A stretch of 64,000 nt of DNA from NCBI GenBank assembly GCA_030658975.1, contig JAUSBL010000055.1, positions 971 to 64,970 of the forward strand, read 5' to 3'. This stretch comes from Candidatus Latescibacterota bacterium. GTDB taxonomy: Bacteria; Krumholzibacteriota; Krumholzibacteriia; LZORAL124-64-63. The notes beneath the pieces are model-generated. The model was not told where the DNA came from, did no database searches, and was given only the letters and a program-made list of their open reading frames with translations. Both the position numbers and the translations under genes were made by a program. This document shows, piece after piece, positions 2,469 through 42,002 of the stretch. Every line of letters begins with the position of its first letter. The first letter of the stretch is position 1.

Positions 2469-5114
2469 TCACTTCAACAGGGTCATCTTGCGCAGCTCGC
2501 GCGCGTCGCTCGTGCGCAGCTCCGCCACGTAGACGCCCGAAGCCGCCGCGCGGCCGTCGCCGTCGCGGCCGTCCCAGGTCGCGACGTGCTCGCCCGCGGC
2601 CAGCGTCTCAGCGACCAGGCCGCGCACCAGGCGGCCCCGCTCGTCGAAGATCCGCAGGCTGACGCGGCCCTGCCGCGCCACGGTGAACCGCAGCTCCGTC
2701 GACGGGTTGAACGGGTTCGGCGCCGCCGGCGCCAGGGCGGTCCGCCAGTTCGGCACCTCGCCCGCCCCGGTCGAGGCCAGGACGAGCTGTTCGGAGCCCA
2801 TGATCACCGGCGCCGCGCGGCCCTGGGCGACCCAGGCGTCGTACAGTTCCTGGCCCAGGGTGTTGGTCGTGTTCGCATCGCGCAGGAACTCGACGTACTC
2901 CTTCGAGATGCTCTGGTAGTAGAGCGTCACCTCGACGATGCTCGCGCCGTCGGGCAGGTCGTAGAGCGTGTCATCCCAGAACTGCCCGTCCTGGTAGCCG
3001 CCGTAGCCGACCACCGGCGACTGCACGGCCTCCAGTTCGGCCAGCGAGGCGCCGCGCGGCGGGATGCGGTTGTCCATGAAGACCGTGTCGTTGAGCACGA
3101 AGTGGAACGAGGGACCCGCGTCGATGCCGAGGATCGCGCCGAGGCGGTGCGAGGTGCCGGGCTCGATGTGGAAGATCTTCGCTTGCGGGTCGTGGTTCAG
3201 CGTGCCGGTGGCCGGGTCGTAGGCGCCCGACTCGTAGATCAGGTTCGACTGGTCGTCGAAAGCCCGCACGTTGATCCAGATGCGCCGGCCTTCCGGGTAC
3301 CCGCTGGGCAGCTTGTGGGCCGTCTCGTTGGTGACGCGCACCGTCACGCCCGGTCCACCGCCGACGGGCGACTCGAAGACCTCGAGCGTGGCCGCCATCT
3401 GCAGCATCGCCGTGACCCGCGCCTTGCCCGCGTTGAGGGCCGTCTGGTCGAATTCGCCCGGGAACCAGGTGGGGATGAGGTCGGGCACGAAGTGGTTGCC
3501 GCCGGTGAGGTCGTGCACGCCGAGGTCGGTGCGGATCGGCCCCGTGGTGGCGCCGCGCCCGGTCGCGTCGGCCATGTGGCAGTCCTGGCAGGTGGAGACG
3601 ATGCCGCCCGGCTTCACGCCGGCGAACTGCGGCGCGTAGACGCCGCCCTCGGCGTAGGCGCTGACCGACCACTCGCTGAACGTGCGCTCGACCGGGAACA
3701 TGTTGCGCGTGTTCCCGTCGGGATGCGGCGCGTCGAGTTCCTGCACGACGTACTCGCCGGGCGCCGTACCGGCGACGAAGGCCGGGTTGCTCACGTCGTG
3801 GCAGGTGCCGCACAGGTTGGCGGTGCGGTGGAAGGCCGAGTCCAGGAACTGGTGCGAGGCCTGGGCGTCCGCGTAGGGCCCGCGGCGGATCGGATCGGGA
3901 TCGGACACGGACTGGCCGTTGCCGTAGCCGAGCACCGGCGCGTCGAGCCGGGCCAGGATGGCCTCGTCCACGGCGGGGCTGACCCCCGGCTGGTAGATCG
4001 GATCGACCGCGCGGTGGCAGTAGTCGCACTGCACGCCCTGGCGATCCTTCGCCGTGATCATGCCGCCGGAGGTGTCGGTGGAGCGGCCCTCCTGCCAGCC
4101 GCCCGGGGTGTGGCAGCGCAGGCAGAGGTCGCCCGAGGCGGGCGCGTCCTGCTCGGCGATGACCATCGTCGCGGCGAAGACGGGGTCGCGCATGGTGTTG
4201 CCCATCATGCTGCCGCGCCAGTTGGACCAGGGCTCCACGGCCGCGCTGTAGCCGCCGTGGCAGGTCGAACAGGTGCCGTCGGGATTGTCGTACACGCCCG
4301 CGCCGAAGGGCTGCGTGCCGGGCAGGCGGAAGTCGCGCAGCGTGGTGGGCGCGACGCCGCCGACGTGCGGTTCGATCGTGAAGTCGGAGGGGCTGTCGCC
4401 GTGACCGGCGTTGCCGGCCGCGTCGCGGGCGTGGACCCGGATCCGCGACGTCGCGCCCGGCAGGTTGGGCACGAACCAGGCGTAGCTGCTCGAGGCTGGC
4501 AGGTTGCGGGCCACGGTCTCCCAGTGGACGCCGCCGTCCTCGCTCAGGGAGATGTCGATCGCGGCGATGCCGCTCGGGTCGGTCGCGGCCCAGGTCAGCG
4601 TCTCGGTCGTGTTCGGTACGACGCTCTCGCCGCCCGCCGGCCAGGTCACCGTGACCAGCGGCGGATCGACGTCCAGCCCGCCGGACGGCGTCAGGTGGTC
4701 GATCAGGTCGGCCTGGTTCACGTTCAGCGCGGCGCCCACGTTGGAAGCCTTGAGCCCGGGGAAGGTGGGCGTGTTCGAGAAGTTCACCGTGTCGGTGATC
4801 TCGATCAGCGCAGAGAATCCGTCGTTGTCCGCGTCCTGCGGCTCGGCGGCGGCGACCGCCGCGGCGTTGGAGAGGCCGTTGTTCACGCCGACTTCCACGG
4901 CGAGCCCGTAGGGGTTGCGCGGACCGCCGCCGCTGAAATCGAAGTGGCACACGCCGCAGTGGTTGGCGCGGGACGGCAGATCGTCCAGCACGCTGTTCAC
5001 CGCGGCGGGGTACCGGTTGAAGAAGGCGTTGCGGATCGGGTTGCGGGCCTGGGCCGCGCCGGCAGCGACGAGGCACAGCGCGAGCAGACAGAACCAGAGG
5101 CGAGTGCAGCGCAT
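2469..5114 (-). CDS. Secreted hexaheme c-type cytochrome with BNR-like repeat region and C-terminal FlgD-Ig/T9SS-type sorting domain
   Basis: Six CxxCH motifs: CGVCH, CSTCH, CLRCH, CDYCH, CGTCH, CQDCH. Signal peptide MRCTRLWFCLLALCLVAAGAAQA. Start moved to ATG 5114 because AAGGAG lies 7 nt upstream (the track start 5147 adds 11 aa). The tail reads PNPFNPSTELRF...SGVYVAEL...KMTLLK. Confidence 0.85.
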   Translation of the reverse strand: MRCTRLWFCLLALCLVAAGAAQARNPIRNAFFNRYPAAVNSVLDDLPSRANHCGVCHFDFSGGGPRNPYGLAVEVGVNNGLSNAAAVAAAEPQDADNDGFSALIEITDTVNFSNTPTFPGLKASNVGAALNVNQADLIDHLTPSGGLDVDPPLVTVTWPAGGESVVPNTTETLTWAATDPSGIAAIDISLSEDGGVHWETVARNLPASSSYAWFVPNLPGATSRIRVHARDAAGNAGHGDSPSDFTIEPHVGGVAPTTLRDFRLPGTQPFGAGVYDNPDGTCSTCHGGYSAAVEPWSNWRGSMMGNTMRDPVFAATMVIAEQDAPASGDLCLRCHTPGGWQEGRSTDTSGGMITAKDRQGVQCDYCHRAVDPIYQPGVSPAVDEAILARLDAPVLGYGNGQSVSDPDPIRRGPYADAQASHQFLDSAFHRTANLCGTCHDVSNPAFVAGTAPGEYVVQELDAPHPDGNTRNMFPVERTFSEWSVSAYAEGGVYAPQFAGVKPGGIVSTCQDCHMADATGRGATTGPIRTDLGVHDLTGGNHFVPDLIPTWFPGEFDQTALNAGKARVTAMLQMAATLEVFESPVGGGPGVTVRVTNETAHKLPSGYPEGRRIWINVRAFDDQSNLIYESGAYDPATGTLNHDPQAKIFHIEPGTSHRLGAILGIDAGPSFHFVLNDTVFMDNRIPPRGASLAELEAVQSPVVGYGGYQDGQFWDDTLYDLPDGASIVEVTLYYQSISKEYVEFLRDANTTNTLGQELYDAWVAQGRAAPVIMGSEQLVLASTGAGEVPNWRTALAPAAPNPFNPSTELRFTVARQGRVSLRIFDERGRLVRGLVAETLAAGEHVATWDGRDGDGRAAASGVYVAELRTSDARELRKMTLLK

Positions 5115-5391
5115 GTCAGTCTCCTTCGGAGATTGGCTGCGGGACACTCCGGAGCGGCAGAGATCCCGGGCGAGAACGGATCATCAAGAACCAACCAAGG
5201 GGAAATTGTAACGGAAGTATCACGGAGATTCCAGATAATGATATGATGACATCAATATTCAGTATCTAAATGCAAGTCACCGCCGTGGACCGCAATGACG
5301 GTTGATCCGGCCAGGGCCCTGTGACAAATTCCGGCCGTGCGGGCCCAACGCGGCCCACCTCTGCCCTCCACAGCGAACCACGGAACCAGAC

Positions 5392-7065
5392 GTGACCAAC
5401 CTGTCGAATCTGGCCGACCGCCCCCGCACCGCCGCCGCCATCGTCGCTCTCGCGGCCGCGCTGGTCTACGCGGGCACGCTGGGCCACGCCCTGGTCTGGG
5501 ACGACGCCAACGTCCTGGCCGGCATGCGCGAGGCCGCCGCGCGCGGCCCGGGCGCCCTGCTCGGGGCGGAGTTCCTCGCCGACACCGGCTACCACCGTCC
5601 CGTCGTGCTGTTGAGCCTGCGGCTCGACGATCTGCTCGGCGGCGGCGCGGTCTTCGTGTTCCACCTGACCAACGTGCTGCTGCACCTCGCCGCGTCCGTG
5701 CTGACGCTCCTGCTGCTGCGCGCGTGGCTGCGCAACGACGCGGCCGCCCTGGCCGGCGCCCTGGTCTTCGCGGTCCACCCCGCGCACGTGGAGTCGGTGG
5801 CCTTCGTGTCGGGCCGCACCGACCTCTGGGTCACGGTGCTCGGACTCGCCGCGGCTCTGGCCTGGACGTGGTGGCGGCGCGGCGCGCGCCGTGCCGGGCC
5901 GGCGGCGCTGCTGCTGTTCCTGCTGTCGCTGTTCGCCAAAGAATCCGCCTACCTGCTGCCCGCGGCGCTGCTCGTGATCTCGGCCCTGCTCCCGCAGGAC
6001 GCGCGCGACCCGCGCCCCTGGTGGCGTCGCCAGGCCGGCTGGCTGGGCGTGGCCGTCGTGACGATGGCCGTCGCCGCGGCGCTGCGCGTCGGCGTTGCCG
6101 GGGTGGGCTTCGGCGAGGGCGCGGCGACGGCCGGCAGCCGCCTCGGCGCCGATCTCACCACGCGCCTGGGTCACCTGCCCGCGCTCGCGGCCTGGTACCT
6201 GCGGCTGCTGCTGGTCCCCTGGCCCCTGAACGCCTACTGGTCCGTGCAACACCTCGCTCCGGGCGTCCTGACCTGGGCGGCGGCGGTCACGGCGGTCGGC
6301 GTCGTGGCGCTCGCGCGCCGCGGCGGCGCGGCCGGCCTGGCCTGGACGTTCATCTTCCTGCTGCCGGTGCTGGGGTTCGCGCCCCTGCAGGGGGCGCCCT
6401 TCGCGGAGCGCTTCCTCTACCTGCCGTCGTTCGGCTGGTGCCTGGTCGCGGGCGCACTGTTCGCGAGGGCGGCGGACGCCGGCCGTCGCCGCGCCGCGAC
6501 GGTGACGGCGGCGGTCGTCGTGGCGCTTCTGACCACCGCGACGCTGACGCGCGTCCCGGTCTGGAAGGACAACGTCACGCTGTTCGACGACATGGCGCGC
6601 CGCTCCCCCGGCGAGTACGTCGTGCAGCACGACCTCGGCGCCGCCCTGCACCTCGCCGGCGACCGGGCCGGTTCGCTGGCCGCCTACCGCCGGGCGGTCG
6701 CCCTGGCGCCGACCCACGAACCGTCGCTGCGCGCGCTCGGCGTGGCCGAAGGCGCCGCCGGCAACCTCGACGCGTCGTACGACCTGCTGCGGCGCGCCGT
6801 GGCCGCCGATCCCCGGCGCCCCGAGGCCCACTGCAACTTCGCCGTGATCGCCGCACACCGCGGCGAGCTCGGGCTGGCCGAGACCCACTACCGACGCGCG
6901 CTCGAATTGCGCCCGGACTACGCCCTCGCGCTGGCTGGCCTCTGCGAGACACTCGCCGCCCGCGGCGACGCCGATGGCGCGCGCCGCCACCTCGCGGCGC
7001 TCCAGCGCCTGGACCCGCGTCTGGCCGCCGAGACGCAGCGCCGGCTCACGGGAACGTCGCCGTGA
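5392..7065 (+). CDS. Polytopic membrane protein with C-terminal TPR repeats (TMTC / GT39-like putative glycosyltransferase)
   Basis: ORF 5302-7065. Hydrophobic N-terminal two-thirds with FVFHLTNVLLHLAA, AVHPAHVESVAFVSGRTDL and FLYLPSFGW blocks, then TPR-like ALAP/ALELRPDYA repeats. GTG 5392 is preferred as start (VTNLSNLADR); the exact start is uncertain. Confidence 0.7.
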   Translation: MTNLSNLADRPRTAAAIVALAAALVYAGTLGHALVWDDANVLAGMREAAARGPGALLGAEFLADTGYHRPVVLLSLRLDDLLGGGAVFVFHLTNVLLHLAASVLTLLLLRAWLRNDAAALAGALVFAVHPAHVESVAFVSGRTDLWVTVLGLAAALAWTWWRRGARRAGPAALLLFLLSLFAKESAYLLPAALLVISALLPQDARDPRPWWRRQAGWLGVAVVTMAVAAALRVGVAGVGFGEGAATAGSRLGADLTTRLGHLPALAAWYLRLLLVPWPLNAYWSVQHLAPGVLTWAAAVTAVGVVALARRGGAAGLAWTFIFLLPVLGFAPLQGAPFAERFLYLPSFGWCLVAGALFARAADAGRRRAATVTAAVVVALLTTATLTRVPVWKDNVTLFDDMARRSPGEYVVQHDLGAALHLAGDRAGSLAAYRRAVALAPTHEPSLRALGVAEGAAGNLDASYDLLRRAVAADPRRPEAHCNFAVIAAHRGELGLAETHYRRALELRPDYALALAGLCETLAARGDADGARRHLAALQRLDPRLAAETQRRLTGTSP

Positions 7066-32474: not shown

Positions 32475-33398
32475 ATGACCGTCCTGAACATCGTCCTGCC
32501 CATCTTCCTGGTCATCGGCCTGGGCTATGCCCTGCGCCGGCTGCGTTTCGTCACGACGGCCGGCAACGCCGTCCTGACGCGGATGGTCTTCTACGTGGCC
32601 GCGCCGGTGCTGCTGGTGCGCGGCGCCGCCGGCACGGATCTGCGCAGCAGCCTCGACCCCCGCGTCCTGGGCGTCTTCATCGTCGTGAGCGTGCTGGTCG
32701 CGGCCGCGACGTACGCGCTCGCGTTCCGCTCCCGCGCTTCGCGGCGCGGCGTCTTCGCGCAGGGCGCGCACCGCAGCAACATGGTCTTCGTGGGCCTGCC
32801 GCTGGTCATGAACGCCTTCGGCAAGGAGGCCGTCGGCCAGGTCTCGGTGCTGGTGGGGGCGATGGTCGTGGTCTACAACGTGCTGTCGATCGTGGTGCTG
32901 ACCCTGCCCCACCACAGCGGCGGGCCGGGACGACACGTGGATCTGACGGGCATGCTGAAGCGCATCGCGGTCAACCCGCTGGCGCTGGGCAGCGCGACCG
33001 GGATCATCCTGTCGGCGACCGGCATCGGCATCCCGCACGCGCTCGGCGGCGCCATGGACCTCGTGGGCGCCACTGCCCTGCCCCTGGCTCTGGTGTCGGT
33101 CGGCGCGGGGCTGGACCTGGGCCGCCTGCGCCGCGAATTGCCGGGCGCCGCGACAACCAGCGCCCTGAAGCTCGGACTCTACCCCGCGCTCGTCTACGTC
33201 GGGCTGCGCGCCCTGGGTCTGGAGGGGATCGCCCTGCAGGCGCCGGTCCTGCTGGCCGCCACGCCCACCGCCGTGGTAAGCTACGTCATGGCCCAGGAGA
33301 TGCAGGGCGACGAACAGCTTGCAGGCGCCATGGTCATCGGCTCCACGCTGCTCTCGCTGCCGACGAGCATCCTGTGGCTGCTGTTGCTCGGCGTCTGA
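32475..33398 (+). CDS. AEC (auxin efflux carrier) family transporter
   Basis: ATG 32475 in ORF 30126-33398. MTVLNIVLPIFLVIGLGYALRR..., about 10 hydrophobic segments, 307 aa. Confidence 0.75.
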   Translation: MTVLNIVLPIFLVIGLGYALRRLRFVTTAGNAVLTRMVFYVAAPVLLVRGAAGTDLRSSLDPRVLGVFIVVSVLVAAATYALAFRSRASRRGVFAQGAHRSNMVFVGLPLVMNAFGKEAVGQVSVLVGAMVVVYNVLSIVVLTLPHHSGGPGRHVDLTGMLKRIAVNPLALGSATGIILSATGIGIPHALGGAMDLVGATALPLALVSVGAGLDLGRLRRELPGAATTSALKLGLYPALVYVGLRALGLEGIALQAPVLLAATPTAVVSYVMAQEMQGDEQLAGAMVIGSTLLSLPTSILWLLLLGV

Positions 33399-33435
33399 AC
33401 GCCGCCGCCGTGCGCGGCGGAGTGCAGGGGATGGC

Positions 33436-34839
33436 TTGGAGACCGGCCGCCGCGACTTCCTGAAGCTGATCGCCGCCGCGGCGGCCGCCGGCGCGCTGCC
33501 GGCGCGGGCCGGCTCTTCCACACCCGGCGCCGAGCCCACGCCCGCGCCGTCCCGCCCCGACATCCTGGTGATCCTGGCCGACGACCACCGCCACGACGCC
33601 CTCGGCTGCGCCGGCCACCCCTACGTGCGGACGCCCGCCCTGGACCGGGTCGCGGCCGGCGGCGTCCGCTTCACGAACGCCTGCGTGACGACGTCGCTGT
33701 GCAGCCCGTCGCGCGCCAGCTACCTGACCGGACGCTACCCCCACCAACACGGCATCTTCACGAACGCCGGCCGGCCGCTGAGATCCGGTATTCCCACCTA
33801 CCCCGAGCTGCTGCAGGCGGCGGGCTACGAGACGGCGTTCTGGGGCAAGTGGCACCTGGGCGCCTTTCCCCGCCCCCTCTCCCAGCCCGGGTTCGACCAC
33901 TGGACCGTGTTGCACGGTCAGGGCGCCTATGCGCCGAACGACATCGTCGTCGACGGGCAGGTCGTCCACGAGGACCGCTACGTCACCGATGCCCTGACCG
34001 CGCGGGCCCTGGAGTTCCTGGAGCGCCCCCATGAGAAGCCCCGGCTGATGGTGCTGAGCCACAAGGCGGCGCACGCGCCGTTCGTGCCGGCCGCTCGCCA
34101 CGCCGATCTCTACGCGGGCGAGAACCCCGATCTTTTCTGGGCCCCGGACGAGGACGTATCGCAGAAGCCGGTCGGCGCGGAACAGGCGCTTTACGGGTCT
34201 CATCGCGAAACGGTTCTGGACTACTACCGCTGCCTGGCGGCCGTCGACGAGAGCATGGCCGCCCTGGACGCCGCGCTGGAGAGGTCGGGGCGCTTCGACG
34301 ACACGCTGGTGATCTACACCAGCGACAACGGATTCCTGCTCGGCGAGCACGGCGGGCTCTGGGACAAGCGCCGCGCCTACGAGCCCGCCATCCGTGTGCC
34401 GCTGCTGGTACGGTGGCCGCGCGCGCTGCCGGGCGGCGGCCTCTGCAACGAGCTGGCCCTGAACATCGACCTTCTGCCGTCCCTGCTCGAGGCCGCCGGC
34501 GTGAAGTCGCCGCCCGGCGTGCAGGGACGTTCCTGGCTGCCGGTCGCCCGGGGCGCGCCCGGCCGCGACGCCTTCCTCTACGAGTACTTCCAGGACGAGG
34601 GACCGGTCGGTTCGCAGGTCGCCGTACGCACGAAGCGCTGGAAGTACATCGTGCCCCTCGACCGTCACGGCGGCCGCAACGCGCGCCGACCGGTGGAGCT
34701 CTACGATCTCGCCGCCGATCCCGGCGAACTGCGCAACCTCGCCGGCGACCCGGCGTTCGCGACGGCCCGGGACGAGATGGAGGCGGCTCTCGTGCGGCAG
34801 ATGGACGAGACGGGCTACGTCTTCAGCGGATCGCGATGA
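33436..34839 (+). CDS. Cys-type sulfatase with twin-arginine signal
   Basis: ORF 33319-34839. TTG 33436 gives LETGRRDFLKLIAAAAAAGALPARA (Tat motif). Also DILVILADDHRHD and CSPSRASYLTGRY (CxPxR formylglycine motif). Confidence 0.85.
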   Translation: METGRRDFLKLIAAAAAAGALPARAGSSTPGAEPTPAPSRPDILVILADDHRHDALGCAGHPYVRTPALDRVAAGGVRFTNACVTTSLCSPSRASYLTGRYPHQHGIFTNAGRPLRSGIPTYPELLQAAGYETAFWGKWHLGAFPRPLSQPGFDHWTVLHGQGAYAPNDIVVDGQVVHEDRYVTDALTARALEFLERPHEKPRLMVLSHKAAHAPFVPAARHADLYAGENPDLFWAPDEDVSQKPVGAEQALYGSHRETVLDYYRCLAAVDESMAALDAALERSGRFDDTLVIYTSDNGFLLGEHGGLWDKRRAYEPAIRVPLLVRWPRALPGGGLCNELALNIDLLPSLLEAAGVKSPPGVQGRSWLPVARGAPGRDAFLYEYFQDEGPVGSQVAVRTKRWKYIVPLDRHGGRNARRPVELYDLAADPGELRNLAGDPAFATARDEMEAALVRQMDETGYVFSGSR

Positions 34840-35963
34840 CGCCCGGCCCGCTCGCGCCGTCCCTGCTGCTCGTCAAGCCCGCCGGCGCCGACTGCAACTT
34901 CCGCTGCGACTACTGCTTCTACCTCGACGCCGACGCCCGTCGGGGCGCCTCCCGCCGGCGCATGAGCGACGAGGTCCTCGAGCGGATGATCGCCTCCTAC
35001 CTGGCGCTCGATCTGCCGGTCCACGCCTTCTGCTGGCAGGGCGGCGAGCCCACGCTGATGGGGCTCGACTTCTTCCGCCGCGTGACGGAACTGCAGGAGC
35101 GCCACGGACGGCCCGGCACGGTCATCGCCAACAGCCTGCAGACCAACGCCGCGCTCATCGACGACGCCTTCGCCGGCCACCTTGCCGACTACCGCTTCCT
35201 GGTGGGGTGCAGCCTCGACGGGCCGCCGCACCTGCACGACCGGCGGCGGCGGAGCGCGGGCGGCGGCGCGACCCACGACCTCGCCGTGGCCGGGTTGCGC
35301 CGTCTCCAGGCGCGCGGCGTGGCGGTCAACACCCTCTGCGTGGTCCACGACACGAACGTCGGCCACGCGCGCGAGGTCTTCGACCATCTCGTCGGCCTGG
35401 GCTTCGACCACCTGCAGTTCCTGCCCTGCGTCGAGTTCGGGCCCGACGGCGCGCCGCGGCCCTGGACGATCACGGGAACGCAGTGGGGGGAGTTCCTGAT
35501 CGGCATCTTCAAGGCGTGGCGCAACGCAGGGATGCCGGTCGCGGTGCGCAACCTCGACGCCGTGCTGCAGCGCCTGGTCGACGACCGGCCCGGTGACTGC
35601 ACGATGGACGACAGCTGCCGGCAGTACCTGGTCGTCGAGCATGACGGCGGCTACTATCCCTGCGACTTCCGTGCGACCCCGGCTTGGCGCCTGGGTGACG
35701 TGATGTCGATGAATCCGGCAGAGGCCATGGCTACGGCACGGATGCTGGAGTTCGGTGCGATCAAGACGCCGGCCTCGCCCGACTGCCCGCCATGCCGGCA
35801 CTTCGACGTCTGCCGCGGCGGCTGTCCCGCCCGGCGGAATCCGCGCGAAGCCGCGGGCAGGGAGTGGCTGTGCGCGGGGACGCTCGCCTTCCTCGACCAC
35901 GCGCGGGGATCCTTCGAGGAAATGGCGGACGGGATCCGCCGAGCGCATCGGGATCGCGCCTGA
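34836..35963 (+). CDS. Anaerobic sulfatase-maturating radical SAM enzyme (anSME, SPASM domain)
   Basis: ATG 34836 overlaps the sulfatase stop (ATGA). CNFRCDYC (CxxxCxxC); GGEPTL; C-terminal CPPCRHFDVCRGGCP. Confidence 0.85.
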   Translation: MTPGPLAPSLLLVKPAGADCNFRCDYCFYLDADARRGASRRRMSDEVLERMIASYLALDLPVHAFCWQGGEPTLMGLDFFRRVTELQERHGRPGTVIANSLQTNAALIDDAFAGHLADYRFLVGCSLDGPPHLHDRRRRSAGGGATHDLAVAGLRRLQARGVAVNTLCVVHDTNVGHAREVFDHLVGLGFDHLQFLPCVEFGPDGAPRPWTITGTQWGEFLIGIFKAWRNAGMPVAVRNLDAVLQRLVDDRPGDCTMDDSCRQYLVVEHDGGYYPCDFRATPAWRLGDVMSMNPAEAMATARMLEFGAIKTPASPDCPPCRHFDVCRGGCPARRNPREAAGREWLCAGTLAFLDHARGSFEEMADGIRRAHRDRA

Positions 35964-35965
35964 GG

Positions 35966-37048
35966 TCATGCCGCGCCCCCGTTCCACGGCAGCCCAGGAT
36001 CGAAGAAGTGCAACCCCTGCCCGAGCCGCGCCCCGATCGACGACGCCGGGTAGCGCGCCACCAGTTCCGGGTGGTCGAAGAACCCCGCCGGCCGCTTCTC
36101 CCCCCGCCCGACCATCTCGTAGCGGACATCCAGGGGCCGCTCCACGTTGGGAGCGTACGCCACACGCACCAGGCATTCCGACGCGCCCGACTGCACGGCC
36201 CTCACGGCCGCCTCGCGCGCCCCGTACGACCCGATCCGGTCGATGTGCGAGAGGTGCTTGCCGGACAGCGCCCCGCCGCCGATCGGGATGCGCGGGCCGT
36301 AGAAGTCCATGACGAGCTTGCGCCCGGTCTGGCCGTTGTCGCCGTTGCTGCCGGCCTGCACCAGCGGGCCGTTCGGGTTGATCATCAACTCGATCTCGTC
36401 CCAGCGGGCGCGCCAGCGCGGGTCGCGTTCCCTGGCCTCGCCGTAGGCCCGCGCGAGCACCTGCACGATCGCCTCGCAGACGTCCATGAACTTCGCGTCC
36501 GCACGCTGCTGCAGCGTGACCAGCAGGTGCTCCACGATCCAGCGCCCGCCCTCCTCGCGCAGGCGCAGCAGCAATTTGCCGTCGGGTCCCTGCCCGGCCA
36601 GCGGCCCGTCGGCGCAGGCCGCGGCCAATGCTTCGCGCAGCACGTGGCAGAGGTAGTGCTCGGGCGGCAGGTAACGCGTGTGCGCGTCGTAGCCGGCCCA
36701 ACCGAGCACCACGCTCTGGTCGTTGACCTTGCCCGTGAACCGCGCGGGGTCGTCGAGCACCTCGCACACGGCGCTGTGCACCGTGTAGCGGTTGGCGTCG
36801 ACGTGGTTGCCCGGCACGTAGCCGATCGCCAGGCCCGTTTCCACCACGATGTCCCGCAGCGGGCGCGCCAGGGGCCGGCGCGTGCAGACGCCGCCGGTGA
36901 GCCAGAGCTGGCAGGACCAGACGGCGACCTCGATCTGGGCGTAGGCGTCAGCATCGACGCCGACGCACTCGGCGACGATGGCGTCGGCGACCTGGTCGCA
37001 GTACTTGTCCGGGTGGCCGGGCAGGACGATCTCGCTGATGCGGATCAT
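35966..37048 (-). CDS. Divergent S-adenosylmethionine synthetase (MetK) paralogue, last gene of the MoxR cassette
   Basis: 360-aa ORF. It contains PGHPDKYCDQVADAI, NDQSVVLGWA, PDGKLLL, GDNGQTGRKLVMDFYG and GGGALSGKHLSHIDRIGSY, each paralleling a block of the canonical MetK at 40421-41578. AAGGAG SD; ATGA overlap with the upstream gene. Confidence 0.8.
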   Translation of the reverse strand: MIRISEIVLPGHPDKYCDQVADAIVAECVGVDADAYAQIEVAVWSCQLWLTGGVCTRRPLARPLRDIVVETGLAIGYVPGNHVDANRYTVHSAVCEVLDDPARFTGKVNDQSVVLGWAGYDAHTRYLPPEHYLCHVLREALAAACADGPLAGQGPDGKLLLRLREEGGRWIVEHLLVTLQQRADAKFMDVCEAIVQVLARAYGEARERDPRWRARWDEIELMINPNGPLVQAGSNGDNGQTGRKLVMDFYGPRIPIGGGALSGKHLSHIDRIGSYGAREAAVRAVQSGASECLVRVAYAPNVERPLDVRYEMVGRGEKRPAGFFDHPELVARYPASSIGARLGQGLHFFDPGLPWNGGAA

Positions 37049-38427
37049 GAGCGAACTCCTTTCAACGCGGGTAGCTGGGTGCAGGCGATTCCGGCGCGCT
37101 CCAGTGCGGCCGGGCTGCCGTCGCGGCTCACCAGCGCGTGCAACTGCGTGCCCGCCGTTTTCGCTACGAGCTGCCGGTCCAGCGCCTCGATGTAACCGTC
37201 GGTGACCACCACGGCCGCTGTCGGGCGCGTCCTGACCAGGTGTTCAAGCACGCAGGACATGCTGGTGCCGCCCGTGGTCTGCGCCTTCAGGGCGCCGCGC
37301 TCGATGACCGCGGGTGCGACAGTGTCGCTGAAGGCCCAGAACGGCCGGCGGATCAGGCCCGACAGTTGCCCGAGCAGGGCCACGAGGTGCGGCATCTCGG
37401 CGCTCATGGATCCCGACACATCCAGGTAGACCTGGGCCGTGCCGGTGTGGCGCGGCGCCGTCCCTCCCCAGCCTGCTTCCGGCAGGAAAGGCGCCCACTG
37501 CGATCGCAGGAAGGCGCGGCGATCCTGCGGCGACAGCACCGGCAGGCGGTACTCGTGCGGAGATTCGATACAACGTCGCGAAAGGCGGTCGGGCGTGAGG
37601 TGGCGCCGGAGGATCGCGAGCGTCGTCGCCCGCCACTGCCGCAATGGCGCCTCGGCTGACGCGACGAGCGCCTCGTAGGAATTGCAGCCGACGCCGCGGC
37701 CTCCGGGTGAGCGCCAGATCCCTCGCCCGTTCATTTCCCGCATCGACTTCTCGAGAGTCTCCTGAAGCGGGCCCGACAGCTCGCGGCCGAGCTCGTCGTG
37801 ATTGCCGAGCAGATCGCCGGCATCGTCGCCTCCGTCGTCACCGAACGTGAAGGGGCCCGCACCCGGCGTTCCCGAGACCATCCCCGCCAAGTGCGTGGCG
37901 AGCGCCTCTATGTCATCGACGATCAGGCGCCCCGCATATAGGCTCGACCAGGCGCGGATCCAATACGGCAACTGGGGGTACTCATCTCGGCCGCTGTGGG
38001 CGGACAGCCAGTCATGCTCTTCCCCGTTCATCGGGCGGAGGAGTTTCTGGCGGCCTGCGGCATCTGCATAGTAGCGCCCCATCATCCCGGAATACCCGGG
38101 GCCGTACTGGCGGTGAATGATGGCGTTGATCACGGCGTCGACCGCCAGATGACGGGCCGGAGTCAGCATCTGCCGCTGCTCCGTGTGGCGCAGGATCACG
38201 TGGAGAAATTCGTGGCAGATGACCGCCTTCACCTCGTCGTCGCTGGTGCAGTGTTCGCGGACGAATGCGAGGTTGACCAGCAACCGGGGCCGGTCGGCGC
38301 AGGTCACCGCCAGCGTCGGCACCGCGTTGGTGAATTCGACTTCGAGGATCCGCAACGCGGCCCGGATGGCGAACGGATTTTCGTCGACCAATTCCAGCAG
38401 GATCGAGCGGAAGCGCTTTTCGTTCAT
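37045..38427 (-). CDS. HExxH metallopeptidase-like N-domain fused to a vWA domain (DUF2201_N/DUF2201-type MoxR partner)
   Basis: ATG 38427 in ORF 37045-38877 (GGAGGGA SD). HEFLHVILRH; MIDAS-like YLDVSGSM...TTGGTS...VVVTDGY. ATGA overlaps at both ends. Confidence 0.75.
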   Translation of the reverse strand: MNEKRFRSILLELVDENPFAIRAALRILEVEFTNAVPTLAVTCADRPRLLVNLAFVREHCTSDDEVKAVICHEFLHVILRHTEQRQMLTPARHLAVDAVINAIIHRQYGPGYSGMMGRYYADAAGRQKLLRPMNGEEHDWLSAHSGRDEYPQLPYWIRAWSSLYAGRLIVDDIEALATHLAGMVSGTPGAGPFTFGDDGGDDAGDLLGNHDELGRELSGPLQETLEKSMREMNGRGIWRSPGGRGVGCNSYEALVASAEAPLRQWRATTLAILRRHLTPDRLSRRCIESPHEYRLPVLSPQDRRAFLRSQWAPFLPEAGWGGTAPRHTGTAQVYLDVSGSMSAEMPHLVALLGQLSGLIRRPFWAFSDTVAPAVIERGALKAQTTGGTSMSCVLEHLVRTRPTAAVVVTDGYIEALDRQLVAKTAGTQLHALVSRDGSPAALERAGIACTQLPALKGVRS

Positions 38428-38891
38428 GAGTAGAATCCCTCCAGGTCGAAGAGTTCGAGCCCGCGTCCGAGGCTTGATGCCGTCCACAACACCGGCCGCG
38501 CCGGGTCGTAGAGCTGGGCCGTGCAAAGGCCGAGCATCAAAGCCTGCCGCAGCACCGCGGCACGACTTCCCCGCTCCACCGAGAGCCGCCCGGCGTCCGG
38601 CGGCAATGGACGGCATACCAGCCGCTTCTCGGGGATCGAGAACACGCCGCGCAGACTCTCGGGGCCGGCATAGCCCGCTTCGACCAGCAGGCGCTCCAAT
38701 GTCTCTACGCAGTCCGCTGCGCCGAAAGTCAGCCCGAGCCTGATCACGCGTGGGCAGCGAATCGCACCTTCGTCCTTTCCCAGCAGCGTGGAAGCAAGGT
38801 GTTCGGTGCGGACGCGGCTCATGGGGCCGCCCATGTTCGCGTGCAGGGCGGGGCGGCATGCCCGCCGTGTGTTCCACCCGGATGGATTCAT
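38424..38891 (-). CDS. 155-aa protein of unknown function wedged between the MoxR and vWA genes
   Basis: C-terminal part of track ORF 38424-39662. ATG 38891 overlaps the MoxR stop (ATGA) and its own stop overlaps the next start (ATGA). I recognise no motif. Alternative starts: 38834 and 38822. Confidence 0.5.
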   Translation of the reverse strand: MNPSGWNTRRACRPALHANMGGPMSRVRTEHLASTLLGKDEGAIRCPRVIRLGLTFGAADCVETLERLLVEAGYAGPESLRGVFSIPEKRLVCRPLPPDAGRLSVERGSRAAVLRQALMLGLCTAQLYDPARPVLWTASSLGRGLELFDLEGFYS

Positions 38892-40288
38892 GAGCGCACC
38901 CGCTGGTTTAACAGCGCGACGCAGGCTTCGATCTCCGCCTCCAGTTCGGCCGGGGCATGGGGGTGGACGTTGGCGACCAGACACCAGTTGAAGAATTGAC
39001 TCGCCCTTTCGTAACGACCGTCTCGGGTACCCAGATCGGCGAGCACGCGCGCGAAGCTGGTGTAAAACGGACTGACCGAATCGCTCTCGCTCAGACGTTC
39101 GTACCAGGAGAACTCTCCCGATACGGACAGGATGGGTGCAGCCAGCTTGCCGAGATCGTTGACCCCCTCCGCTCCGATCGCGAGCGCGCCTCCGGCGGCG
39201 GCCGCGTAGGTGGCGAAGGCGAAGGCAGCGGCACGGGCCCTGGTTTCGGATGCCAGGAATTGGGCCACGGCCTGTGTTCCCTGATCCGGATCGGTGCAAC
39301 GGTCGATCAGGATGCCGAGCTTCTTCGCCAGCGTCTTCTCGGCCAGGAACTGATGGATCCAGTTGGCTTGGGTCGCGAATCCGCTTTCCCAGGCAAGGCG
39401 ATGGGCCGCCGTGAGGGCCGCCCTGTTGACCTCGACCCCCCAGGTGCGATGAGGCAGACTGGCCCGGAGCACGTCCGAAAAGAGGCTGTCGGTTTCTTTC
39501 CCGACCACGATCGCGGCCGCCAGCAGGCTGCGAGCCAGCAGGCGCGAACGGCGTGGTGATATCCGGATATTCGCGCTGTTGAGTGCCGTGGTCGCGCTGG
39601 TGACGTAGGTCAGGATGCGCGGCGGGCAGCCCTCGATCCGCTCGAGGAAGGTCCGCCGCCACGTCTCGACCAGCCCCTTAAGCCGCCCCCCGTCATCGGT
39701 GACTTTCCCCTCCCCGCTCGGATCTGCAACGAGGCTCCGCGCCTCGTCGTCCAGGCCGTCCCAGTCAGGCGCCTCCACGAACAGCGCGAACCGGTCGGCC
39801 AGCGCCTGGTCCAGCGGCTCCGAGCCCGCGTAGTCCTCGGCCCCGCCCTGGTCCGTCGAGCACGGGTTCATCGCCGCCCAGCGGTAGCGCAGCCTGGGCA
39901 GCGCGATCCCCTGGACCCGTCGTTCGTGCACGAGCGCGAACAGGCGGTTCTGGTGCTCGGGCTTGCAGCGGCTGATCTCGTCGACCAGCACCGACTCGGC
40001 GCCCCAGACCGTGGCCGGCGTCTCGAGGAACTTCACGCCGCCGTGTTCCTGGTCCGGGTAGGGGAAGCCGACCAGGTCGTCGAAGGAGATCAGGCTGGCG
40101 TTGTAGTGGCGGTGCTCGAGGCCCAGGGCCTCGGAGAGGGAGTTGAGCAGGTAGGTCTTGCCGGTGCCCGAAGACCCGATCAGCAGGAGCGGATCCTCGG
40201 TGACCAGCGCGGCCAGGATCACCGGCTCGAGCCGTTCGAATCCGTAGACGCCGAGAGCGGACAGACGGGAATGCGCACAGGTAGGCAC
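38888..40288 (-). CDS. MoxR-like AAA+ ATPase with ~250-aa C-terminal extension
   Basis: 466-aa ORF. GTG start preceded by AAAGGAGGA. Walker A LLIGSSGTGKTYL, Walker B SVLVDEISRCKPEHQN, and an AAA lid region. Confidence 0.8.
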   Translation of the reverse strand: MPTCAHSRLSALGVYGFERLEPVILAALVTEDPLLLIGSSGTGKTYLLNSLSEALGLEHRHYNASLISFDDLVGFPYPDQEHGGVKFLETPATVWGAESVLVDEISRCKPEHQNRLFALVHERRVQGIALPRLRYRWAAMNPCSTDQGGAEDYAGSEPLDQALADRFALFVEAPDWDGLDDEARSLVADPSGEGKVTDDGGRLKGLVETWRRTFLERIEGCPPRILTYVTSATTALNSANIRISPRRSRLLARSLLAAAIVVGKETDSLFSDVLRASLPHRTWGVEVNRAALTAAHRLAWESGFATQANWIHQFLAEKTLAKKLGILIDRCTDPDQGTQAVAQFLASETRARAAAFAFATYAAAAGGALAIGAEGVNDLGKLAAPILSVSGEFSWYERLSESDSVSPFYTSFARVLADLGTRDGRYERASQFFNWCLVANVHPHAPAELEAEIEACVALLNQRVRS

Positions 40289-40292
40289 GTGG

Positions 40293-40355
40293 TCCTCCTT
40301 TTAGCGGATTTGCCGGAATGGCGGGGCCGCAAGCTGGATTCAAATCCCCCGGCCC
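40293..40355 (-). promoter_or_regulatory. Structured leader element upstream of the MoxR gene, paralogous to the metK leader element; its 3' strand runs into the SD
   Basis: Minus-sense sequence: GGCCGGGG-GATTTGAATCCAGCTTGCGG-CCCCGCC-ATTCCGG-CAAATCC-GCTAAAAGGAGGA-CCAC-GTG. It shares GATTTGAnTnCAGCTTGCGG and AAATCC(A)GCTAAA with the metK leader. Confidence 0.55.
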
Positions 40356-40420
40356 GTCAGGTGGGCCAGCCCTTCGCGCGGCGCCGCCGCTCACGGGCGA
40401 CGCCGGCGTCCTTCACTCCT

Positions 40421-41578
40421 TCAATTGTCCGTCGTGACGTGTTCCCACAGGAAGTCGGGCTTCTCGCGCCCGAAGTGCCCATAGGCCGCCGTGTCGAAGT
40501 AGATGGGCCGCAGCAGCCGCAGCCGCTCGATGATCCCGGCCGGCGTGAGATCGAACTCCGCGCGCAGGGCCGCGGCGATCTCCGCATCACGCGTGCGCCC
40601 CGCCGCGGGCGTCATGACCAGGAAGCTGACCGGCTCGGCTTCGCCGATCGCGTAGGCCAGCTGGACGAGGCACTTGCCGGCCCAGCCGCGCGCCACGACG
40701 GTCTTGGCCAGGAAGCGCGTCATGTAGGCGGCCGAGCGGTCGACCTTCGAGGGATCCTTGCCCGAGAACGCGCCGCCGCCGTGGGGCGCCGCGCCGCCGT
40801 AGGTGTCGACGATGATCTTGCGTCCGGTCAGGCCGGTGTCGCCCTTCGGACCGCCGACGGTGAAGGAGCCGCTGGGGTTGATGTACTCGCGGTAGCCGGC
40901 GCTGCGTCTCGCCGCGGGAATGACCGGGTCGATGATGTGCTCGCGCACCTGCGCCTGCAGCTCAGCCAACCCGATGCCCGGATCGTGCTGGGTGGAGAGC
41001 ACCACCGCTTCGACCGCGACCGGGCGGCCATCCTCGTAGCGGTAGCTCACCTGCGACTTGGCGTCCGGGCTCAGCCAGGGCAGCGTGCCGCAGCGGCGGA
41101 CCTCGGCCTGCTTCTGCATCAGCCGGTGGGCGTCGACGATGGGCGCCGGCATCAGCACGCCGGTCTCGTCGCAGGCGTAGCCGAACATCAGACCCTGATC
41201 GCCCGCGCCCTGCGCACCCTGCGCGCCCTTCACGGCTGCGGTGATCTCGGAGGCCTGGCGGTTGAAGCGCACGTCGATGAAGCAATTGTCGGGATCGATG
41301 CCCGAATCCGCATCGGCGTAGCCGGTGTCGCGGATGACGGCGCGGGTCAGTTCCTTCGCGCGGGCGCTCACCGCGTCGAAATCCTCGTCCCGTTCGGTCC
41401 GGAACTCGCCCGCCACCACGACGTGCTGGTCGGCGAGCAGCGTCTCGCAGGCGACGCGCGCCGCGGGGTCCAGTTCCAGGAAGGCATCGACGAGCGCATC
41501 GGAGATGCGGTCGGCCAGCTTGTCGGGATGACCCTCGGAGACCGATTCGGAGGTGAAAACACCGTCGCGGATGAACAT
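40421..41578 (-). CDS. metK: S-adenosylmethionine synthetase (canonical)
   Basis: ATG 41578 in ORF 40421-41596. It contains ESVSEGHPDKLADRISDA, GAGDQGLMFGYA, GDTGLTGRKIIVDTYGG and GGGAFSGKDPSKVDRSAAY. Confidence 0.95.
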   Translation of the reverse strand: MFIRDGVFTSESVSEGHPDKLADRISDALVDAFLELDPAARVACETLLADQHVVVAGEFRTERDEDFDAVSARAKELTRAVIRDTGYADADSGIDPDNCFIDVRFNRQASEITAAVKGAQGAQGAGDQGLMFGYACDETGVLMPAPIVDAHRLMQKQAEVRRCGTLPWLSPDAKSQVSYRYEDGRPVAVEAVVLSTQHDPGIGLAELQAQVREHIIDPVIPAARRSAGYREYINPSGSFTVGGPKGDTGLTGRKIIVDTYGGAAPHGGGAFSGKDPSKVDRSAAYMTRFLAKTVVARGWAGKCLVQLAYAIGEAEPVSFLVMTPAAGRTRDAEIAAALRAEFDLTPAGIIERLRLLRPIYFDTAAYGHFGREKPDFLWEHVTTDN

Positions 41579-41588
41579 GAGTTCCCCC

Positions 41589-41684
41589 AAACACAACAGC
41601 CCGCTCAGCTTGACGCCAAAGCGGGCTTCCTCTCGCTTTAGCTGGATTTGTATAGCGCCCGCAAGCTGAACTCAAATCGGCGCT
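41589..41684 (-). promoter_or_regulatory. metK 5' leader: candidate H-type pseudoknot riboswitch (SAM-II/V-like layout) followed by an intrinsic terminator
   Basis: Minus-sense sequence: AGCGCC-GATTTGAGTTCAGCTTGCG-GGCGCT-ATA-CAAATC-CAGCTAAAGCGAGAGG (41684-41634). This is followed by stem AGCCCGCT (41627-41620) / AGCGGGCT (41605-41598) and GUUGUGUUU. Confidence 0.5.
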
Positions 41685-41694
41685 GCTCCGTACC

Positions 41695-41722
41695 ATGATA
41701 CGACTCCGGCGGACGATGTCAA
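41695..41722 (-). promoter_or_regulatory. Sigma70-type promoter of metK
   Basis: Minus strand: TTGACA (41722-41717), 16-nt spacer, TATCAT (41700-41695). Confidence 0.6.
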
Positions 41723-41946
41723 GGGGCGCGCGAACTCCGACTTGCGCGGCCGCGGGGGTCGGGATGCCACACTTCAGACATCCCCCCACGGGAAAGGACC
41801 GCGCAGGTGCAGGACGACAGCCTCCGCCACAGCCTCGGCGAACGCGTCAAGGAGTTCACGGCCCAGACGCGTTCGTCGACCACGGCGGCGTTCACGATGA
41901 CGTACAACTTCTAGGCCACGGCGCAGCGACGCCTCGCCACAGCAGA

Positions 41947-41978
41947 AGGGGGCGGATCCCGTCTGGGACCCGCCCCCT
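41947..41978. terminator. Hairpin terminator downstream of the qNOR gene (U-tracts on both strands)
   Basis: AGGGGGCGGATCCC / GGGACCCGCCCCCT with GTCT loop. The plus strand continues CCGUUUUAU and the minus strand continues UCUGCUGU. Confidence 0.5.
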
Positions 41979-42002
41979 CCGTTTTATCGCGGGCCCGGTC
42001 GA

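Follow-up and report, generated by a model that had tools for sequence, protein, structure and literature searches.

A Predicted SAM-II/SAM-V-Type Riboswitch between metK and a MoxR-Like Gene Cassette in a Candidatus Latescibacterota Bacterium

The short region between metK and a gene for a MoxR-like ATPase on contig JAUSBL010000055.1 of a Candidatus Latescibacterota bacterium harbors an RNA element that most probably senses S-adenosylmethionine (SAM). We analyzed 64,000 nucleotides (nt) of this contig, called the window in the following, and all positions refer to this stretch. From the sequence letters alone, an earlier note (the original prediction) had claimed that a second copy of the metK-leader RNA lies on the minus strand in front of the MoxR-like gene and acts as a translational switch for the ligand of the metK leader, most plausibly SAM, which would tie the genes behind it to the SAM status. 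With a probability of roughly 85%, we consider the element to be a SAM-sensing riboswitch of the SAM-II/SAM-V superfamily that would turn off translation of the MoxR-like gene at high SAM levels. The likely SAM-II identity of the metK leader, four covarying helices, a Shine-Dalgarno sequence that lies inside the fold as in SAM-V, and SAM riboswitches of other classes in front of orthologous gene cassettes support the switch that had been proposed.

A Second Copy of the metK-Leader RNA in Front of the MoxR-Like Gene

The second element, which we call type B (the metK leader being type A), is located on the minus strand between the stop codon of metK (40421), from which it is separated by 63 nt, and the GTG start codon of the MoxR-like gene (40288). 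When read in the window, the minus strand at 40293-40355 carried the sequence quoted in the original prediction, and the claimed likeness to the metK leader was found as described: GATTTGAATCCAGCTTGCGG (40346-40327) and GATTTGAGTTCAGCTTGCGG (41678-41659, in the metK leader) are identical at 18 of 20 positions, with two differences. The pattern GATTTGANTNCAGCTTGCGG matched twice in the window, compared to 0.00 matches expected from 100 dinucleotide-preserving shuffles. The tail CAAATCC(A)GCTAAA, most of which had been noted as shared, is common to both copies. In the second element, this 3' strand indeed runs straight into the Shine-Dalgarno sequence and continues as GGAGGA-CCAC-GTG, with the start codon 4 nt behind GGAGGA.

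The Rfam scan that had been proposed as a check recognized the two copies to a different extent. At gathering scores, no family matched in the entire window. A permissive scan of the 151-nt intergenic region returned SAM_V (RF01826) with 14.2 bits (E 5.1; gathering score 41 bits), a partial match to SAM_alpha (SAM-II, RF00521) with 11.5 bits (gathering score 36 bits), and nothing else; neither SAM/SAH (RF01727) nor SAM-II long loops (RF01726) matched this region at E ≤ 10. The second element thus gave only weak matches, and the metK leader was detected as SAM-II with 29.9 bits.

The Helices Are Supported by Covariation

A search of the genome collection with the MoxR-like protein gave 209 relatives, and the best 80, from many phyla, were kept as loci (L-numbered stretches). 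Starting from a simple pattern, the covariance model R1 was built on eight copies of the element (alignment A2). The search with R1 detected 21 second-element copies in 17 loci plus the window. The window copy, itself one of the seeds of R1, scored 82.6 bits, and copies that were not seeds reached up to 89 bits. Metagenome contigs were scanned with a degenerate pattern in which GATTTG, TTGY, CTAAA, and a purine-rich site were fixed; at least 120 stretches matched, about 65 of which parse as true copies. The alignment A5 comprises 101 copies aligned by the model, at least 96 of them distinct, the metagenome part being taken from the matches listed. Only two groups of copies escape the bias of this pattern, namely the 21 reached by way of protein homology and the second copies that the model alone detected.

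The element is an H-type pseudoknot in which the 3' part of the P1 loop pairs with the 3' tail. P1 encloses the third strand, a linker, and the 5' strand of P2. It is followed by the hairpin P3, in which columns 51/53/54 of A5 pair with columns 69-71, and by a joiner whose first A is 92% conserved. The GGA that pairs with the linker in P2a is the first half of the Shine-Dalgarno sequence GGAGGA (40298-40293), so the ribosome-binding site is placed within the fold. The start codon lies about 5-13 nt past the purine-rich site across the copies, mostly 6-7 nt.

The covariation check proposed in the original prediction was run by pair counts on the 96 distinct copies. Standard pairs accounted for 97.0% of the overall structure, compared to 40-64% for slid controls in which the partners were moved by 1-3 columns. 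Double changes were counted in 159 cells and in 10 of the 16 pairs, all four helices showed compensatory changes, and the observed covariation was reached by none of 500 shuffles. In P2, columns 35-83 held CG 74 times and UA 18 times, columns 36-80 GC 56, CG 25, UA 3, UG 3, and AU 2 times, and columns 37-77 GC 64, CG 14, AU 4, and GU 3 times. The middle pair of P3 was AU in 43, CG in 24, GC in 23, and UA in 2 copies, and that of P2a was CG in 73, UA in 10, and UG in 9. The compensatory variants of P1 include A-U, C-G, and U-A pairs, and the metK leader has GCGCC/GGCGC in place of GGGG/CCCC. P2 and P2a were absent from the model that made alignment A5, and the support for them is independent of the model because neither helix was part of it. 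A marine subtype has CUUC/GAGG in place of the P2a pairing, and in A5, the P2a of the subtype present in the window is shifted by one column.

The Predicted Ligand Site Is Conserved

We read the structure against the SAM-V structure (PMC6061858) and the description of SAM-II (PMC3303485), from which the structural roles of the third strand are also taken. The U residues of the third strand correspond to U10-12 of SAM-II and U8-10 of SAM-V, the U-U-G on top of P2 to U21/G22 and U19-20/G21, the bulged U to U44 and U47, and the following AAA to A45/A46 and A48-A50, respectively. In the known structures, it is from the bulged U and the AAA that the adenine of SAM obtains its partner; these bases also contribute to the U:A.U triples and supply the A to which the amino-acid end is bound (PMC6061858, PMC3303485).

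In the 96 copies, the A and the three U of the third strand were conserved to 98-100%, and the same value was found for the equivalents of the SAM contacts, partly due to the construction of the metagenome pattern. GAUUUG was present in 17 of the 20 full-length copies reached through protein homology; GAUUUA occurred once and GAGUUG twice. The UUG and the C-U-A-A-A were invariant in the 21 protein-homology copies, and C-U-A-A-A was also found in all 96. Second copies detected by the model only (UAUUUG, CAUUUG) retain the tail. From the sequence, we infer that the second element would bind SAM.

Relation to Known SAM Riboswitches

We regard the RNA as a variant of the SAM-II/SAM-V superfamily which, as judged by sequence comparison, combines a SAM-II-like core sequence with the architecture and the expression platform of SAM-V. 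With SAM-II (RF00521, SAM_alpha; metX structure 2QWY) it shares the H-type pseudoknot, the GAUUUG third strand, the GCUUGC / GC-U-AAA core with the bulged U, and a long G+C-rich P1. It differs from SAM-II by the P3 hairpin in the joiner from P1 to P2, by a P2 of 6 bp instead of 4 bp, and by the ribosome-binding site that is built into its fold, whereas classical members of SAM-II are mostly transcriptional. SAM-V has a P3 at this position of the joiner and SAM-II has none (PMC6061858).

The agreement with SAM-V (RF01826; metY structure 6FZ0) is part for part and includes P1, the AUUUGAA third strand, a 6-bp P2 with bulged U, the P3 hairpin, the A-rich joiner, and an immediately following Shine-Dalgarno sequence that pairs with the linker as a short P2a. 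The predicted function as a translational OFF switch is also that of SAM-V, which is typically found downstream of a transcriptional SAM-II. However, the core of the present element is GC-UUGC as in SAM-II and not UA-UUGUGC as in SAM-V, and its P1 is G+C-rich. SAM-V occurs in Pelagibacter and marine Bacteroidetes, whereas the variant was found in loci of metagenome-assembled genomes (MAGs) labelled as beta-/gammaproteobacterial or Gemmatimonadetes and in assorted metagenomes. The marine subtype with UUGUGC/GCAC-U-AA bridges SAM-II and SAM-V. SAM/SAH and SAM-II long loops are also H-type pseudoknots that bind SAM and are associated with metK or a SAM-II-like core, but they have another conserved core and occur in Rhodobacterales and in Bacteroidetes/marine taxa, respectively.

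The arrangement resembles the bi-mechanism tandems (Sherlock et al. 2022, PMC9481103), in which a first sensor with a terminator and a second sensor on the ribosome-binding site respond to one ligand; different from these, a complete metK gene lies between the sensors in the window. Known tandems are SAM-II then SAM-V, SAM-II then SAM-II, and SAM-I/IV then SAM-II (PMC9481103). In the 2022 survey, SAM-II aptamers that come second and are positioned over a ribosome-binding site are already mentioned, as are two instances in which SAM-II comes after SAM-I/IV, and the type-B kind has therefore probably been glimpsed before. In complete proteobacterial genomes, the SAM_alpha regulon was reported for Rhizobiales and Rhodobacterales only and comprises metY, metA, and metX (PMC4239095). 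In the literature searched, we found no paper that links any SAM riboswitch to the cassette (MoxR, DUF2201, VWA), and the accessible part of the 2010 description of SAM-I/IV does not mention gene context.

Other SAM Riboswitches Precede Orthologous Cassettes

Of the 80 cassette loci, 55 were scanned at Rfam gathering scores. SAM-I/IV (RF01725) immediately precedes the MoxR-like gene in 22 loci (L015, L020, L021, L023, L026, L027, L030, L033-L036, L040, L044-L046, L049, L053, L055, L059, L067, L078, L079), and the MAG records bearing it carry labels of many phyla. Some cassette loci contain SAM-I/IV in two or three copies. SAM-I (RF00162, 78.3 bits) is located upstream of the MoxR-like gene in L050, an Acidimicrobiia MAG, and SAM-II directly upstream of this gene in several other loci. 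By our own tally of Rfam and R1 matches, a recognizable SAM riboswitch is present in about 49 of the 69 loci with enough upstream sequence. A gene for the MetK paralogue MetK2 that lies apart from the cassette is directly preceded by a SAM-I/IV of its own (L023:10684-10791, L026:11209-11316). The presence of further SAM riboswitch classes before this cassette ties it to SAM independently of the type-B element, and the link of the cassette to the SAM status, which the original prediction had drawn from the window alone, is thereby strengthened.

As in the published bi-mechanism tandems (PMC9481103), the type-B element is often found within about 100 nt behind another SAM riboswitch, namely behind SAM-II in L010, L082, and L129 and behind SAM-I/IV in L013, L037, L039, and L124. 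It also precedes canonical metK genes (L005, L028, L037, L111, L112, L175).

In two Elusimicrobia MAGs (L017:5800-5915, L009:3780-3865), the spacer between metK and the ATPase gene contains a SAM-I-like stretch that stays below gathering scores and reads AUCAUAGAGAG .. GGCCCGUCUGAAACCC .. GCCAACCUGC .. GGUAAGGUG. Some loci scored as lacking a riboswitch probably carry divergent ones.

Many genes that lie behind other copies of the variant have no evident link to SAM (examples are L125:784-1017, L098:76-360, L095:1869-2735, L089:2368-2997, L181:4191-4919, L104:958-2622, and L077:5085-5906). The products of these genes include a SNF2+SWIM helicase, proteins of the DUF3293 and HDAC-like types, and many small uncharacterized proteins. 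Recurrent families include a 75-amino-acid (aa) protein (MRKLIQATPAYELSAD..), a 95-aa protein (MSIAETLATTE..), and MRKLNCRPGDLA.., and further families are characterized by ..RPASYFW.., ..RGLVRCxVCHEYRG.., or TAT signals. Searches with Pfam and NCBIfam gave almost nothing for the recurrent proteins. Several metagenome contigs have two or three copies of the variant in front of successive genes.

Alternative Explanations

Several points weigh against a SAM-sensing translational switch. None of the type-B copies reached an Rfam gathering score in scans of 32 loci with such copies. When the element and its flanks were folded for minimum free energy, z values of +0.83 and -0.37 were obtained, which is no signal, as expected for a pseudoknot. 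The metagenome pattern was biased, so that the invariance of the fixed bases is partly ascertainment. Co-transcription with metK was deduced only from the absence of predicted signals. Many genes behind the variant (metagenome loci L081-L200 and others) have no evident link to SAM, and a related ligand is therefore possible.

The strongest competitor keeps the fold and changes the ligand to S-adenosylhomocysteine (SAH), to SAM plus SAH, or to another SAM-related metabolite. Close variants with a changed ligand are known, as variants of SAM-I sense spermidine (PMC10853860), and both the downstream genes just mentioned and the failure of the Rfam SAM-II and SAM-V models to detect the variant would fit such a change. 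On the other hand, the features that read the ligand are conserved, namely the U:A.U triple for the charge of the sulfonium and the bulged U for the adenine. Moreover, the variant precedes canonical metK genes, it swaps with SAM-I, SAM-I/IV, and SAM-II before the same cassette, and it sits in tandem behind SAM-I/IV and SAM-II. We consider a changed ligand unlikely, and SAM remains the presumed ligand.

The original prediction had drawn another fold for the same RNA, namely a pseudoknot between GAUUUG and CAAAUC inside a long GGC(C)GGGG/CCCCGCC helix that differs in sequence from the enclosing helix of the metK leader and still pairs. Both complementarities are present in the window and in the metK leader, the geometry is indeed H-type, and the inner GGGG/CCCC is conserved as P1. 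The remainder of this scheme is contradicted by the covariation in the 96-copy alignment and was rejected. Over the 96 copies, the GAUUUG/CAAAUC helix is paired in 71.9% of cells, with its A-U pair in 9 of 94 copies and without compensatory changes beyond 4 cells at the outermost pair (columns 14-77), whose 3' column also serves P2. At the middle position of the outer GGC/GCC (columns 6-53), 71 of 93 related copies show no pairing, and the GCC of this proposed helix is the 5' strand of P3, which pairs with the downstream GGC. In contrast, the competing P2 and P3 are paired in 97.7% and 99.3% of cells with many compensatory changes, and this scheme agrees with the crystal structures of SAM-II and SAM-V (PMC3303485, PMC6061858). 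The helix of the knot is UUGCGG/CCGC-U-AA, with GAUUUG as the predicted triplex strand instead of a Watson-Crick partner, and a function of the earlier fold appears highly improbable.

We rate it equally improbable that the element belongs to the 3' untranslated region of metK as a stabilizer, a processing site, or a riboswitch-derived small RNA. Its position 63 nt past the metK stop codon would be compatible with such a role, and SAM-II riboswitches can yield small RNAs (PMC9373788). But in most loci the element precedes the MoxR-like gene without metK upstream (L003, L010, L012, L019, L077), its 3' end always enters a Shine-Dalgarno sequence with a start codon 5-9 nt further on, and it has no U-tract. 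A decaying, non-functional relic of a local duplication of the metK leader, to which the distance of 1.3 kb and the near-identical 20-mer could have pointed, was rejected as the least credible explanation, since P1 has a wholly different sequence yet pairs, the second element has a P3 and an expression platform of its own, and all helices are kept by compensatory changes in 96 distinct copies from many lineages. A SAM-sensing switch of the SAM-II/SAM-V superfamily therefore remains our preferred explanation for the element.

The metK Leader and the Organization of the Transcript

The coordinates of the element, the metK leader, and the surrounding genes are compiled in Table 1.

Table 1. Features of the metK-cassette region in the window (pairing percentages refer to cells of alignment A5).
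Feature	Position	Strand	Remarks
Whole type-B element (aptamer, ribosome-binding site, and start codon; predicted SAM-II/SAM-V fold)	40283..40358	-	Covariance model R1
P1, GGGG 40350-40347 with CCCC 40326-40323	40323..40350	-	95.2% paired
Third strand (L1), GAUUUG	40341..40346	-	Predicted in the major groove of P2
P2 pseudoknot, UUGCGG 40332-40327 with CCGC 40307-40304 and AA 40302-40301	40301..40332	-	97.7% paired
Bulged U	40303	-	Predicted partner of the SAM adenine
A equivalent to SAM-V A50	40300	-	Position comparison
P3 hairpin, GCC-AUUCC-GGC	40312..40322	-	99.3% paired
A-rich joiner, AAAU	40311-40308	-	Directly after P3
P2a, linker UCC 40338-40336 with GGA 40298-40296	40296..40338	-	95.8% paired
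GTG start codon, MoxR-like gene	40286..40288	-	4 nt past GGAGGA (40298-40293)
MoxR-like AAA+ ATPase, 466 aa	38888..40288	-	First gene of cassette; Pfam AAA_5, AAA_3
Conserved 155-aa protein	38424..38891	-	Start overlaps MoxR-like stop as ATGA
DUF2201-like protein, 460 aa	37045..38427	-	Start overlaps preceding stop as ATGA
Divergent MetK paralogue (MetK2), 360 aa	35966..37048	-	Start overlaps preceding stop as ATGA
metK (SAM synthetase)	40421..41578	-	TIGR01034 482.6 bits (cut-off 309.4); three Pfam MAT domains
metK-leader aptamer (type A), predicted SAM-II	41621..41693	-	RF00521 29.9 bits, E 3.5e-4, full length 1-79
metK-leader expression platform	41589..41642	-	Read from sequence
Sigma-70-like promoter, TTGACA-16-TATCAT	41695..41722	-	11 of 12 positions; directly 5' of metK leader

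The metK leader appears to be a SAM-II riboswitch and a member or near-member of RF00521. Its score in the permissive scan is below the gathering score of 36 bits, which is passed by its counterparts in L004 (41.6 bits), L010 (39.3), L003 (38.1), and L028 (37.3). The metK leader has no P3, and its 4-bp P2b abuts P1, a feature of SAM-II that the second element does not show.

The expression platform of the metK leader reads as an ordinary terminator/antiterminator arrangement. An antiterminator hairpin of GCUAAAGCG (41642-41634) with CGCUUUGGC (41622-41614), which forms in the minimum-free-energy fold, competes with a terminator stem of GCCCGCU (41626-41620) with AGCGGGC (41605-41599), followed by UGUUGUGUUU (41598-41589). 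The GCUAAAG doubles as the 3' strand of the aptamer pseudoknot. A simple terminator scan did not flag this terminator because its loop exceeds 8 nt. The plus strand at 41593-41680 matched RF02424 (Burkholderia sRNA candidate Bp2_Cand287) with 26.1 bits (E 0.003); the matched sequence is antisense to the SAM-II leader with its platform, and RF02424 may represent a SAM-II riboswitch that was entered with the wrong orientation.

In simple scans, the site directly in front of the metK leader was the only promoter-like sequence in 35800-42000, and no promoter-like or terminator-like site was detected between metK and the MoxR-like gene. As the simplest reading, metK and the cassette would form one operon that is co-transcribed from the promoter at 41722. 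Both expression platforms of this tandem layout can be read behind the one promoter-like site, and 1.2 kb of metK separates the sensors. In L003, the position between the SAM-II leader and the second element, which metK takes in the window, is occupied by an open reading frame (ORF) of 148 aa (4999-5445) that, from its translation alone, we take to encode a GxxExxY-type protein. The gene between the sensors is therefore variable.

Proposed Mechanism

When SAM is bound, the GAUUUG strand would form a triplex in the major groove of P2, the adenine of SAM would pair with the bulged U 40303, and the sulfonium would be placed between the O4 atoms of a U:A.U triple. SAM would thus stabilize the triplex together with P2a, so that the GGA of GGAGGA is hidden and the ribosome is kept off. 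SAM-stabilized masking of the Shine-Dalgarno sequence has likewise been proposed for SAM-V and for the translational metX SAM-II (PMC6061858). At low SAM levels, the third strand and P2a would be freed, and the cassette would be translated.

The single promoter at 41722-41695 would drive the whole unit. The SAM-II leader would gate transcription through the terminator/antiterminator, and the second element would separately gate translation of the cassette behind metK. This logic would be that of the SAM-II/SAM-V tandems, but with the metK reading frame between the sensors. The three genes following the MoxR-like gene are probably also governed by the element: the stop and start codons within the cassette overlap as ATGA, and control at the first start codon should therefore spread downstream by translational coupling.

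The Four-Gene Cassette

The cassette consists of four genes joined by ATGA stop/start overlaps. By tblastn, the gene for the 155-aa protein was located in at least 60 of the 80 cassette loci, where it lies between the MoxR-like and the DUF2201-like genes. This protein had no match in Pfam, NCBIfam, or PDB sequences; none of its 277 relatives has a Pfam domain, and all named ones are designated as hypothetical. Its AlphaFold model has a predicted local distance difference test (pLDDT) value above 90 over residues ~50-150, and a Foldseek search of the model against PDB gave no match at E ≤ 0.001.

The DUF2201-like protein comprises an N-terminal putative metallopeptidase domain with the motif HEFLH and a VWA-like C-terminal domain. 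Its Pfam hits (DUF2201_N, Peptidase_M48, DUF2201) are weak and below the curated cut-offs. A single DUF2201 ORF of 610 aa (37045-38877) was rejected: its first ~150 codons are spurious and overlap the 155-aa gene in another frame.

MetK2 matched TIGR01034 with 136 bits, below the cut-off of 309, and the three methionine adenosyltransferase (MAT) domains of Pfam were found. It matches solved MATs at E ~1e-29 and is ~30% identical to canonical MetK (tblastn). The motifs GHPDK, PDGK, GxTGRK, and GGGAxSGK..DR are retained. MetK2 has NDQS in place of what we take to be the canonical motif GAGDQG; the printed alignment shows only the DQ pair.

Pairs of a MoxR-type ATPase and a VWA protein adjoin the client enzyme that they activate, as in CbbQ/CbbO with Rubisco and in NorQ/NorD. 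The cassette likewise combines a MoxR-type AAA+ protein and a VWA partner with a single enzyme gene, here that of the MetK paralogue. It differs from these activase pairs in that the partner also has a putative metallopeptidase domain and that a fourth protein, the 155-aa protein, is always present. By analogy, the module may represent an alternative SAM synthetase with its own activase.

In some loci, the riboswitch and the MoxR-like gene are separated by a small ORF of 47-84 aa (L039:1744-1884, L048:5846-5989, L148:3676-3927). These ORFs share the motif ..ILxITAxHF.. and may encode a leader peptide or represent a small coupled gene. Downstream of the cassette, the plus strand of the window (33319-35963) has sulfatase-like and radical-SAM/SPASM maturase-like ORFs, as taken from their translations only.

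Genes for tRNAs lie within a few kb of the cassette in L077 (4337-4409), L011 (5344-5416), L023 (3205-3277), L009 (9565-9636), L017 (13144-13215), and L059 (11473-11545). The cassette proteins are 52-73% identical across phyla. The identity values and the nearby tRNA genes suggest that the cassette may have spread horizontally, perhaps in genomic islands. Two other views of the cassette were rejected. For a defence system, PADLOC gave only a weak mad8 hit to the P-loop region of the ATPase. For a phage-borne cassette, a search of IMG/VR gave no relatives of the MoxR-like protein, and among 72 matches of the pattern in viral contigs, just 2 were real copies of the element.

Implications for SAM Homeostasis

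Rfam 15 misses a common riboswitch type with at least 96 distinct copies, and a model built from these would recover them. Tentatively, we propose that the variant marks an unrecognized SAM-starvation regulon, in which the four-gene module would be a back-up SAM synthetase with an ATP-driven activase or remodelling machinery that is switched on at low SAM. With the same reserve, we suggest that the module may have spread horizontally and that the variant may also control at least 15 further protein families without known function.

Four SAM riboswitch classes converge on one uncharacterized cassette in MAG records that are labelled as at least 10 phyla. Genetically, this convergence argues strongly for a role of the cassette in SAM homeostasis, and SAM limitation would be the condition under which the MoxR-like AAA+ protein, the DUF2201-like protein, the MetK paralogue, and the 155-aa protein should be studied. 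With a riboswitch between the cistrons, the housekeeping gene metK and the accessory cassette would share one promoter and still take separate decisions from a single metabolite.

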